In this document: positions 24,265-50,013 of the stretch, piece after piece
Layout of the letters: each line of letters starts with the position of its first letter
Numbering within the stretch: the first letter of the stretch is position 1
Assembly (NCBI GenBank): GCA_947628165.1
Contig: CANQYV010000003.1
Span: 1-59,676 of the forward strand
Source: an uncultured Clostridia bacterium
GTDB lineage: Bacteria > Bacillota > Clostridia > Oscillospirales > CAG-272
DNA: 59,676 bases
Reading direction: 5' to 3'
Position numbers and translations under genes: made by a program
The notes under the pieces: generated by a model
What the model was told of the DNA's origin: nothing
The model's database searches: none
The model's input: the letters and a program-made list of their open reading frames with translations, nothing else

Positions 24265-24328
24265 AACTGTCTCCTCGGCTCTGTAAAATCCCGATTTATC
24301 GAACGGTCGCCCCCATCGACATTTATCA

Positions 24329-24337
24329 TTGTACCAC
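24329..24337 (-). promoter_or_regulatory. Extended -10 promoter element driving the SMI1-GNAT islet
   Basis: TGGTACAAT on the minus strand; no convincing -35. Confidence 0.55.
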
Positions 24338-24400
24338 ACAAATGTGAAGAAATCTACTGCCCATTAAAACGGTTAATCGAAATTTCGGTCCATATCGAAT

Positions 24401-24446
24401 AAAAAAGCGCCCCGACGATTTTATCCTCGTCGGGGCGCTTCTTTTC
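24401..24446. terminator. Rho-independent terminator after divIC
   Basis: AAGCGCCCCGACGA-8 nt-TCGTCGGGGCGCTT flanked by A/T tracts. Confidence 0.85.
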
Positions 24447-47392: not shown

Positions 47393-49411
47393 TCAATAAT
47401 CAAACGCGCCTGTCGTGTTGCCGTCGAACAGGAAATTGTATTCGAGCAGCGAGTATTTGTGCAGTAGCTCCGAGTCGTCAAGCTCGTCAAGCCCGTGCTG
47501 CCTGCCTTCGGCATCGAAGAATCCGTTTGCCGTTATGACCGGGTATTCCGTCATCATTGAGGCAAGGAAGCGCTGCGCGCGCGTCGGCTCGATATTCGCG
47601 ACGCGGCAAAGCAAGGTCGAGAGGTAATTTGCGCTTATCGCCGGTATCTCCTCTTCCCTTATGTCGTAGTTCGCCCAGATGAAGAACGGGACGATGTACG
47701 TCTGCTCCTTCTCCTCGGGTATCTCGTTGTTTATCGTCTTGCCCTTTTGGTTGAGCAGGTCCTGATAGACCCACTTGCTCGGCTGATGGTCTCCGAAGAA
47801 GATGACGAGCGTCGGCTCGCTGTACTGCTCAAGCGTCGTGAGAAGATATTTTACGGCGCTGTCTGTCTCCTTTATGAGCGACAGATACTGAGAGAGCTGC
47901 TGGCTGTTCTCGAGCCCCTCCGCCGTTATCGCCCTGTCGTTAAAGTTGGCATAATTCTTTGTATAGCCGCCGTGGTTCTGCATCGTCACGTTGAATACGA
48001 ACATCGGCTTGCCGGGCTCCTTGTCCTCGAACGTGCGGAGAATATAGCGGAAAACCGATATGTCGGAAACGTAACCGCGGACGAGAGACATCCCGCGCAG
48101 GTCGGGTCGGAAAAGTATATTGTCAAATCCGAACTGGGCGTAGACGTTGTTTCTGTTCCAGCCCGTCGCGCCGTATGGGTGTATCGACATCGTGCCGTAC
48201 CCGTTTGCCTCGAGCTGCGTCGCGAGGCTCGGTCTGTCTCTGTGTATGTACTGCTGATACGGCATGCTCCCCGTCGGCAGATACGCCATCGAAAGCCCCG
48301 TCAGAAACTCAAACTCCGTGTTCGCCGTGCTTCCGCCTATAACGGAGGTGTGCAGCCACCCCTTTACGGTATTTTCCGAAAGCGAGCGGATGAAAGGCAT
48401 ATAGTCCTCGTTCGTCTCGAAATCGAGCACGACGCTGAGGTCGGAGAACGCCTCGTCCATTATTGCAATGATGTTCGGGTTTTTGACGTCCGAATAAGGC
48501 TCGTAGGAGGGCTCTTCGTACCCGCCCGGCTCCGCCGCCTCGTTCGCGGCAGTCTTTGAATACCCGCTCGGCTTTTCAACGGAGAGATATTTCAGATTGG
48601 TCATAAACGCGACGGTGAATCCGTCCCTGCTGTAAAGCGTCGTCGGGGAGAAAAGGTAGGGATAAAGGCCAAAGTCGTCAAACACTCTGTCAAGGCTCAG
48701 ATAGTAACCGTATGAAAAGAACAGTACGAGAACCGCCGCGCAGCAGGAGAGCCTGACGTACAGCCTGCGCAGCCAGCCGAGCTCGACGCCCGTATAAAAG
48801 CCGATATATATGATGAGCAGAAGCGCCGTTACGGCGGCGGCAAGCGTCGGCGTTACTTCAAATTCATAATTGCCGACGACGGACGCCGCGATCCCTATGC
48901 TGCCGAAATCCCACGGGTAGAGCGGAACTGAGCGGAACAGCATGACGTAGTGCTCCGCTATCCCGAAAAAGAGCGCGAAAACCGCCGGAGCGAGCACAGC
49001 CGCCCACGTCCTGCGCGTCGCGAACAAAAATCCGAGCGCGAGAAGATAAAAGAAAATACAGTTGAGAAAAACGGCGGGCGCGCCCATGTCGGAGATGTTG
49101 TGCGACATCTTTTCGAGCAGGAGCATCGACGCCGCGGGCGACACCGCGACGGGTACGATTGCCGCCGCCTTATATTTTTTCGGATGAATGAACAAGAGCG
49201 CCGCCATAAGGACAATCATTATGGCGCAGGATATTATGCAAAATCTGTCTGACACGGCATTTTCCGGCGTGCTGCCCTCGCCTTTTTTCGAGCTCAGCAT
49301 AAGGCAAAACACCGCGCCCGACAGAACTGTCGGTATCAGATAAAAGAATTCACGTCCCACGGGGCGCCTGAAAATGCGCTCCTTTTTGGGCTCTATGCTC
49401 TGTGTTTCCAA
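47393..49411 (-). CDS. LTA synthase/sulfatase-family membrane protein (paralog 1)
   Basis: Same architecture; DEAF, GGSTANTE, MQNHG, FGDHQP; probable TTG start at 49411 after GGAGGTG. Confidence 0.88.
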   Translation of the reverse strand: METQSIEPKKERIFRRPVGREFFYLIPTVLSGAVFCLMLSSKKGEGSTPENAVSDRFCIISCAIMIVLMAALLFIHPKKYKAAAIVPVAVSPAASMLLLEKMSHNISDMGAPAVFLNCIFFYLLALGFLFATRRTWAAVLAPAVFALFFGIAEHYVMLFRSVPLYPWDFGSIGIAASVVGNYEFEVTPTLAAAVTALLLIIYIGFYTGVELGWLRRLYVRLSCCAAVLVLFFSYGYYLSLDRVFDDFGLYPYLFSPTTLYSRDGFTVAFMTNLKYLSVEKPSGYSKTAANEAAEPGGYEEPSYEPYSDVKNPNIIAIMDEAFSDLSVVLDFETNEDYMPFIRSLSENTVKGWLHTSVIGGSTANTEFEFLTGLSMAYLPTGSMPYQQYIHRDRPSLATQLEANGYGTMSIHPYGATGWNRNNVYAQFGFDNILFRPDLRGMSLVRGYVSDISVFRYILRTFEDKEPGKPMFVFNVTMQNHGGYTKNYANFNDRAITAEGLENSQQLSQYLSLIKETDSAVKYLLTTLEQYSEPTLVIFFGDHQPSKWVYQDLLNQKGKTINNEIPEEKEQTYIVPFFIWANYDIREEEIPAISANYLSTLLCRVANIEPTRAQRFLASMMTEYPVITANGFFDAEGRQHGLDELDDSELLHKYSLLEYNFLFDGNTTGAFDY

Positions 49412-49437
49412 AAGACCCGTCACCTCCGTTGTTCTTA

Positions 49438-49830
49438 ATTATACCACGAAGCAAAAACGCTTGCTCGCAAGAGCGTTTTTGCGAGGCCGTCAATGTCAAG
49501 CGAAGCTTTTGAAGATTTTGAAAGCAAGACTTGCGGAGCAAGGCTTGTTTTCAAAGTCGGCGAAGATATTATACCACGTCGCCGAGCGCGCGTAGCAGTG
49601 CGAGGCGGCGGCCGTCAATGATTGCAATGATGTCGGAAGGCAAAGCGGCAAAGCCGCGCATGGCTTCCGTAAACATCATGCAATCATTATACCACGAAGC
49701 AAAAACGCTTGCTCGCAAGAGCGTTTTTGCGAGGCCGTCAATATCGAGCCGGCGGCGCAGCCGCCGCAAAAGCGAAGCTCTTGAAGACTTGCTAAGTGAA
49801 ACTTTGCAAGTCTGCGAAGATATTATACCA
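49438..49830. repeat. Array of promoter-like boxes alternating with variable hairpins
   Basis: ATTATACCA at 49438, 49568, 49686, 49822; GGCCGTCAA three times; exact 57-nt direct repeat 49438-49494 / 49686-49742. Confidence 0.85.
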
Positions 49831-49984: not shown

Positions 49985-50013
49985 TTGACAACATTCGCAT
50001 AGTATGATATATT
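49985..50013 (+). promoter_or_regulatory. Sigma-A promoter of the MATE gene
   Basis: TTGACA-17 nt-TATATT with TG extension. Confidence 0.75.

Follow-up and report, generated by a model that had tools for sequence, protein, structure and literature searches.

Promoter-associated arrays of a hairpin repeat family in gut Clostridia display a strand-specific GNA-type loop pattern

The DNA analyzed here, referred to as the window, is a 59,676-nt stretch from an uncultured Clostridia bacterium of the Oscillospirales, lineage CAG-272 (assembly GCA_947628165.1, contig CANQYV010000003.1, positions 1 to 59,676). An array at 49438-49830 of this window is composed of three head-to-tail units of one repeat family. 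It lies upstream of a minus-strand LtaS-like gene of the sulfatase family (47393-49423), whose product matches the Pfam family Sulfatase; to the right of the array, a MATE gene has a promoter of its own. Exact-protein look-up of this neighboring MATE gene returned no match.

Two conserved boxes, which we named boxA and boxB, alternate strictly along the array, with variable hairpins between them. Each unit begins with a hairpin, either P or Q, followed by boxB (GGCCGTCAAT), a segment of 66-100 nt, and boxA (ATTATACCA, with C or T as the next base). Two forms of the boxB-to-boxA segment occur: a single long hairpin, or a cloverleaf-like four-way junction made up of a closing stem and three hairpins. 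Unit 1 contains P and a variant segment, unit 2 contains Q and a long hairpin, and unit 3 contains P and a cloverleaf.

All features of the array are described on the plus strand. The first box, boxA-0 (ATTATACCA, 49438-49446), is the native target box, and the inserted DNA starts at 49447. Read on the minus strand as TGGTATAAT, this box represents the extended −10 of the LtaS-like sulfatase-family gene. The first copy of the P hairpin (49451-49482) is terminator-like in appearance: its 32-nt stem includes an A5/T5 tract, the loop is g(CTCG)c, and two purines bulge out of the 3' arm. A pattern scan for intrinsic terminators flagged both P hairpins on the plus strand (49462-49475 and 49710-49723); P fits the pattern of a GC stem with a T-run and is a terminator by prediction only. 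BoxB-1 (GGCCGTCAAT, 49485-49494), conserved family-wide, reads ATTGACGGCC on the minus strand and resembles a −35 (TTGACG). Segment 1 (49495-49567) comprises the mini-hairpin AGC-GAA-GCT (49499-49507) and a long hairpin (49514-49558) tipped by CTTGC-GGA-GCAAG (49530-49542), and boxA-1 (49568-49576) ends the unit.

Unit 2 opens with the Q hairpin (49577-49609), which has an outer stem CGTCGCC/GGCGGCG and a core GC-GTA-GC (49590-49596); the loop position is occupied by GAA, GGA, GCA or ACA in homologues. It is followed by boxB-2 (49610-49619), segment 2 (type b, 49620-49685) and the closing boxA-2 (49686-49694). Segment 2 is a single long imperfect hairpin, and its copy on contig C23 of the same genome displays a compensatory A:T to G:C change. 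Unit 3 starts with a second P hairpin (49699-49730), identical to the first, followed by boxB-3 (49733-49742) and the cloverleaf-type segment 3 (49743-49821). This segment is built from a short closing stem plus the hairpins H2 (CGGCGGC-GCA-GCCGCCG, 49750-49766), H3 (AGC-GAA-GCT, 49771-49779) and H4 (49786-49812, tip AAGT-GAA-ACTT). BoxA-3 (49822-49830), the element-borne distal box, is followed by a native T and marks the end of the insertion. Viewed from the minus strand, the boxes are in −35/−10 order but 39-64 nt apart.

A sequence-only reading of the window had listed hairpins of this array and proposed that nearly all of them close with GNA triloops on the plus strand. Reading the array sequence directly, we found every one of these hairpins where it had been placed. 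Seven of the nine tips are triloops, six of them GNA and one AAA; the latter belongs to GCGGC-AAA-GCCGC (49645-49657), the tip of the 66-nt hairpin that makes up segment 2. The exception that had been named, a hairpin with a TC loop and a 2-nt bulge, corresponds to the two P hairpins, whose loop can be written as CTCG or TC. It had also been claimed that the mismatches of the stem at 49514-49558 are mostly G·T wobbles that pair only on the plus strand. This 45-nt stem-loop has 15 outer pairs, including two G·T, and one A·G mismatch. Across the family, G·T pairs are only modestly commoner on the plus strand (74 vs 51 on the minus strand), so the wobble argument is weak at this scale.

The empty state of the locus was found in the sister species G010, whose flanks are 93-94% identical to those of the window. 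Its orthologous promoter (G010:C50) is empty and contains a single ATTATACCAT. The window therefore carries a 384-nt insertion (49447-49830), the end of which repeats the 9-nt box. In two more distant congeners, the orthologous promoter has a −10 variant alone. We also observed the reverse case, in which G010 carries two units where the genome of the window has an empty box, and a paralogous promoter-leader family in which one member is filled and three are empty. Where single-unit insertions have a variant proximal box (TTTAAT, TAGAAT, and others), the distal box is canonical in 13 of 13 cases. This indicates that the box is not a target duplication, and that the element brings its own copy.

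In host-promoter coordinates, the elements land at the −16/−15 boundary, directly 3' of ...ACCA as read on the template strand, and in one orientation. No inverted ends were found: the two ends read CGAAGC... and ...GCGAAGATATTATACCA, and hairpins adjoin both. The terminal inverted repeats and the target-site duplication of MITEs (Correia, MIC231-like) are thus both absent. The arrays always lie upstream of a gene reading away from them. According to the coding-strand calls, the flank codes on the minus strand in 21 clear cases, and the one exception, elsewhere in the window, is probably false. The median box-to-start distance was 61 nt. Taken together, the modules are present or absent at orthologous promoters, are oriented, and carry their own distal boxA. 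A metagenome scan for the native flank-plus-box junction gave no match.

At the orthologous promoter of a third congener (G006:C40:5000-6000, L158, ~540-760), we noticed another unit type, whose boxA and boxB are the same but whose hairpins are unrelated. The difference in unit type suggests independent insertions into one promoter.

Additionally, we noticed a second repeated module of ~190 bp, composed of a terminator hairpin, ~60 nt, and a boxA-like −10. One copy lies in the window (24328-24443), and others are on further contigs of the same genome (C1:56877-57077, C49:643-831 and C56:6489-6681). Beyond the box comes a conserved ~40-nt leader (TAAATGTCGAGTTGGCGACTGTTCGG...), which precedes unrelated genes. 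The copy in the window precedes an SMI1-type gene, and in the C1 copy a hairpin unit is inserted exactly at the box.

The genome of the window contains the same modules at at least 10 other places, several at contig ends. Four of its contigs (C65, C67, C125 and C127) end inside arrays. The repeats thus break the assembly, and their true copy number is underestimated. Among 18 congeners, 10 have modules, as do a few genomes from other families of the order. Named MAGs with modules belong to Oscillospiraceae, Ruminococcaceae, Lachnospiraceae, Clostridiaceae and Bulleidia, and come from human, rabbit and goat guts. Within the genus the repeat has a patchy distribution, but P modules that are almost identical turn up in different families of Clostridia. 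Including a third type, there are three unrelated unit types, which have nothing in common except the boxes and the layout. About half of the contig pattern matches were due to chance and were excluded from the family.

The plasmid and phage collections searched gave no match, and only one viral contig carries the core. By clustering the neighboring genes, we found no recurrent linked gene near the arrays, only spurious ORFs crossing them; the elements are therefore non-autonomous. The box pattern also matched a conserved stretch of Planctomycetota MAGs at eleven loci, one of which (L051) gave a weak match to the cspA thermoregulator (47.8 bits, gathering score 78). This group appears unrelated, and we rejected it as part of the family. 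The family of small mobile repeats in gut Clostridia is apparently undescribed.

Loop statistics were obtained from 100 distinct units (boxB-to-boxA segments) with 258 hairpins. Triloops cap 173 of these hairpins (67%), with 89 GNA and 41 ANA loops against 4 TNC and 6 TNT loops in the mirror classes. C:G closes 157 of the 173 triloops, and G:C closes 3. The middle base of the 89 GNA loops is A in 38, C in 26, T in 15 and G in 10. The pattern is present at H2, H3 and H4, in the long-hairpin type, and in Q. After collapsing to 29 distinct stem arms, purine-N-A still stands at 23 vs 2 for the mirror (p = 2e-5). Shuffled units yielded 14% triloops, 11% of these GNA, so that tabulating the loops of homologues against shuffled controls bears out what had been noticed in the array. 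There is a real, strand-specific loop bias, conserved despite free variation of the middle base. We examined terminator-like hairpins of the same genome in transcribed direction (n = 169), where 18% have triloops and GNA occurs in 2 of these 30 triloops. Host terminator hairpins do not display the loop pattern of the element.

In an RNA, one would expect GNRA to outnumber GNYA and tetraloops to outnumber triloops. Among the 68 tetraloops of the family, 44 are GNNA, and GNYA (23) is about as frequent as GNRA (21), with no purine preference at position 3. GNAB loops also occur, and the P hairpin has g(CTYG)c. In DNA, d(GCGNAGC) and d(GCGNNAGC) mini-hairpins have extraordinary stability and bind SSB poorly, and their RNA counterparts are much less stable (PMC13037366). 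A C:G closing pair is required, and is worth 2-3 kcal/mol (PMC3201870). The loops of the family are consistent in sequence with these d(cGNAg)/d(cGNNAg) forms and have the C:G closing pair, in line with the DNA-type GNA stability that the sequence-only reading had invoked. The tetraloops (GNNA, GNAB and gCTYGc) fit known stable DNA loop motifs, not the GNRA rule of RNA.

We compared the folding of the 394-nt array with shuffled sequences and obtained z-scores of −9.7 for the plus strand and −7.6 for the minus strand with DNA parameters, and a second value of −7.0 for the minus strand. With either DNA or RNA parameters, the plus strand of the array folds 11-12 kcal/mol better than the minus strand. 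Unit by unit across the family, RNA parameters favored the plus strand in 80 of 99 cases and DNA parameters in 84 of 98 (Wilcoxon 1e-12). The asymmetry comes mainly from loops, bulges and purine-purine mismatches. A control of G·T vs A·C on host terminators gave 13:12, so this calibration is uninformative.

The stems were further analyzed for covariation. In 41 distinct P hairpins, 8 of 13 pairs have changed on both sides and 98.9% of cells are paired, compared with 39-61% in slid controls. In 25 diverse units, the closing stem of the cloverleaf and H2 covary. Judging from these alignments, the hairpin structure is under selection, with the stems kept by compensatory changes. We also considered P as the operator of a dimeric repressor and rejected this: compensatory changes that mirror each other point to base pairing rather than to recognition of half-sites.

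The structured plus strand is the template strand of the promoter-like boxes, and a minus-sense RNA made from these boxes would carry c(UNC)g loops. The only rightward promoter in the region is that of the MATE gene, at 49985, and the left flank of the arrays is regularly the 5' end of a minus-strand gene; a plus-sense RNA is thus without an evident source. An Rfam covariance-model search of the array gave best matches of 22 bits against gathering scores of 39-53, and hence no family. The loop repertoire and the strand position indirectly favor DNA over RNA as the probable structured form. We tentatively place first, at a little under an even chance, the reading that selection acts on a folded single-stranded DNA form used in mobility.

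If each unit were instead a tiny gene for a minus-sense structured small RNA, the hairpins would matter as RNA. Such a transcript would start ~7 nt downstream of the extended −10 TGGTATAAT, span the cloverleaf and boxB, and end at the P terminator. A near-consensus extended −10 does open every unit in minus orientation, and P, with its GC stem between A5 and T5, is terminator-like; however, Q and the third unit type have no U-tract, and the real terminator hairpins of the host differ in loop size and sequence. The minus strand also folds far better than its shuffles, as given above, but worse than the plus strand in ~80% of units, and the covariation of the stems is explicable by either strand. 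The loops of this RNA would read c(UNC)g, UNNC and g(CAAG)c, none of them a known stable RNA loop, its unpaired positions would be rich in pyrimidines, and Rfam holds no match. We regard a small RNA of this kind as unlikely.

Somewhat less probable still is a role in double-stranded DNA only. Here the units would be stacked promoter or insulator cassettes that extrude cruciforms under negative supercoiling, and the orientation of the loops would be frozen inheritance. Sequence, order and orientation of the boxes all agree with the −35 and −10 consensus, but their spacing of 39-64 nt does not become 17 nt after removal of the hairpins. Cruciform extrusion as a way to bring the boxes to 17 bp was rejected, the remaining spacers being 5-12 nt. 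The constant position upstream of outward-reading genes, with its median of 61 nt, would suit such cassettes, as would the near symmetry of G·T and A·C and the lack of a detected replication-strand bias in low-power GC-skew counts. A cruciform, however, gains equally from GNA on either strand, whereas purine-N-A stands on the plus strand in 130 triloops vs 10 of the mirror, and this bias extends over all hairpin positions and unit types, the stems of which have fully diverged. A double-stranded role also leaves the precise, oriented and duplication-free insertion unexplained.

That the plus strand is made as a structured RNA, with c(GNA)g, GNRA and g(CUUG)c as RNA motifs, seems very improbable: the classic RNA tetraloops g(CUUG)c and GNRA are both in the family and its unpaired positions are purine-rich, as is typical of functional RNAs, but there is no conserved rightward promoter within the units or next to them, on their left there is always the 5' end of a gene on the opposite strand, triloops dominate (67%), GNYA is as common as GNRA, and no Rfam family matches.

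Mobility in a single-stranded DNA form would call for an enzyme, and the sequence-only reading had pointed to substrates of HUH nucleases. A Y1 HUH transposase (PF01797) or RAYT is absent from the genome of the window, and Y1 is present in only 1 of 19 congeners, which does not bear out that part of the proposal. No match over cut-off to the integron integrase (TIGR02249) was found in 19 genomes, and Rep_trans is present in 3 of 19. We rejected a retro-mechanism as the general route: reverse transcriptase, present in 3 of 19 genomes, is not distributed like the elements. Relative to local GC skew, the elements were oriented 21:19 and 4:3 in counts of low power; the baseline is that 61% of genes have a G-rich coding strand. 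The complete genome used for the replichore comparison has only one element copy.

Of 11 element-bearing genomes, 8 have the PF03432 relaxase domain, as against 0 of the 8 that are element-free (Fisher p about 0.002), with G010 and G005 as exceptions, both element-rich and without PF03432. The PF03432 relaxase of the window's own genome (contig C47:6759-7133) and relaxase-domain proteins of 161-173 aa in congeners are candidate HUH enzymes. This link may only mirror the overall load of mobile DNA. The congeners richest in relaxase matches, G016 and G009, both carry elements. Their multi-copy ORFs of 161-187 aa (L162-L166) consist of the relaxase (PF03432) domain alone; a conserved ORF of 119-130 aa follows the relaxase-domain ORF at 3 of the 5 loci, and one copy in this set lies 5.3 kb from an array. 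We also noticed 9-15 tyrosine-recombinase matches in element-rich congeners vs 2-4 in most element-free ones and 8 in one, including in the former a multi-copy group of 300-317 aa. This excess is a sign of a high mobile-DNA load, by which any enzyme correlation is confounded.

Taken together, the loop observation was confirmed and proved general to the family, and its interpretation was partly supported. For the proposal that selection acts on single-stranded DNA, the DNA-type loops and the single-strand-like insertion stand, while an HUH partner and a replication bias were not found. That the hairpins belong to mobile units with promoter boxes at their borders had escaped the sequence-only reading.

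Under selection for a folded single-stranded DNA form, the reading we favor, the hairpins would be the body of three copies of a small, non-coding, non-autonomous mobile module. During its movement, the plus strand would fold as single-stranded DNA, and a structure-recognizing nuclease or recombinase acting in trans would hold the hairpins. This enzyme could be HUH-like, as in IS200/IS605 or relaxases, or attC-integrase-like. Cutting and joining would take place at the single-stranded boxes, after ...ACCA, and the cGNAg caps may provide fast hairpin nucleation and SSB resistance. With a terminal box that doubles as a good −10 and a −35-like boxB, the element would leave the interrupted gene with a promoter, which would make the insertion tolerable.

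One orientation, a fixed 3' site, no duplication and no inverted ends together resemble single-strand transposons by analogy. Such features follow the logic of single-strand (HUH) transposition or attC-type recombination (PMC3597680). A more specific proposal, possible and decidedly more doubtful than selection on a single-stranded form as such, is that these are a new class of non-autonomous, single-strand-DNA mobile modules homing to the upstream edge (−16/−15) of the sigma-A extended −10. The box would serve as both target and own terminus, so that each insertion would split the host promoter, take over its upstream half and supply the gene with a replacement. The modules would be mobilized in trans by a relaxase-type HUH enzyme or a not-yet-recognized one. 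As a counterpoint, both boxes match the sigma-A −35 and extended −10 consensus, so their conservation could stem from promoter function alone. The orientation of the loops could in part be inherited from a common ancestor.

Among known systems, the ends of IS200/IS605, PATEs and REP/BIME have, like the elements here, sub-terminal imperfect hairpins and no inverted repeats (PMC3597680). IS200/IS605 derivatives further share strand-specific features, oriented insertion 3' of a short fixed sequence without target duplication, precise empty sites, and small non-coding copies that are sometimes arrayed (PMC3597680). Unlike them, the elements are not accompanied by a Y1 HUH transposase or RAYT, either in the genome of the window or in most congeners; their target is a 9-nt promoter box equal to their own 3' end, their linkers differ in length, and they contain an internal second box, boxB. 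IS200/IS605 show a lagging-strand bias, and none was detectable for the elements in the low-power GC-skew counts.

Similar to integron attC sites, the units conserve structure and not sequence, one strand matters, extrahelical bases are found on one arm (the 2-nt bulge of P), a short conserved box stands at both unit ends, and the arrays are head-to-tail. Unlike attC, they lack RYYYAAC...GTTRRRY core sites, the boxes being ATTATACCA and GGCCGTCAAT, and no integron integrase was found in the 19 genomes; the units are free of genes, contain promoter boxes and have promoters as their target. BOX of Streptococcus pneumoniae and Correia of Neisseria are likewise modular, hairpin-rich intergenic repeats of variable copy number, able to bring promoter elements next to genes. 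Correia elements, however, have inverted ends and a TA duplication, both absent here, and BOX modules are not bounded by promoter boxes, unlike our units. Neither insertion at the −16/−15 edge of a −10 box nor a one-stranded set of cGNAg loops has been reported for either of them.

The caps themselves, c(GNA)g and c(GNNA)g with C:G closing pairs on short GC stems, resemble the d(GCGAAGC)-type mini-hairpins of single-stranded DNA phage origins, ssiA and N4 virion-RNAP promoters. Such mini-hairpins are described as resisting SSB and as functional only when the DNA is single-stranded (PMC13037366). They are single functional sites in phage or plasmid replicons, whereas here caps are found on every hairpin of a chromosomal mobile repeat. 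Some hairpins (GGA, GAA) fit the N4 hairpin-promoter form; N4 needs a central purine, but the middle base is free in the family, being C or T in 41 of 89 GNA loops.

If the single-strand reading is true, the family would represent a transposase-less repeat that targets the promoter −10 box itself, and a natural case of DNA mini-hairpin chemistry selected genome-wide. It would also bear on promoter rewiring and on copy-number variation between strains in uncultured gut Clostridia, and on why assemblies break at array loci.
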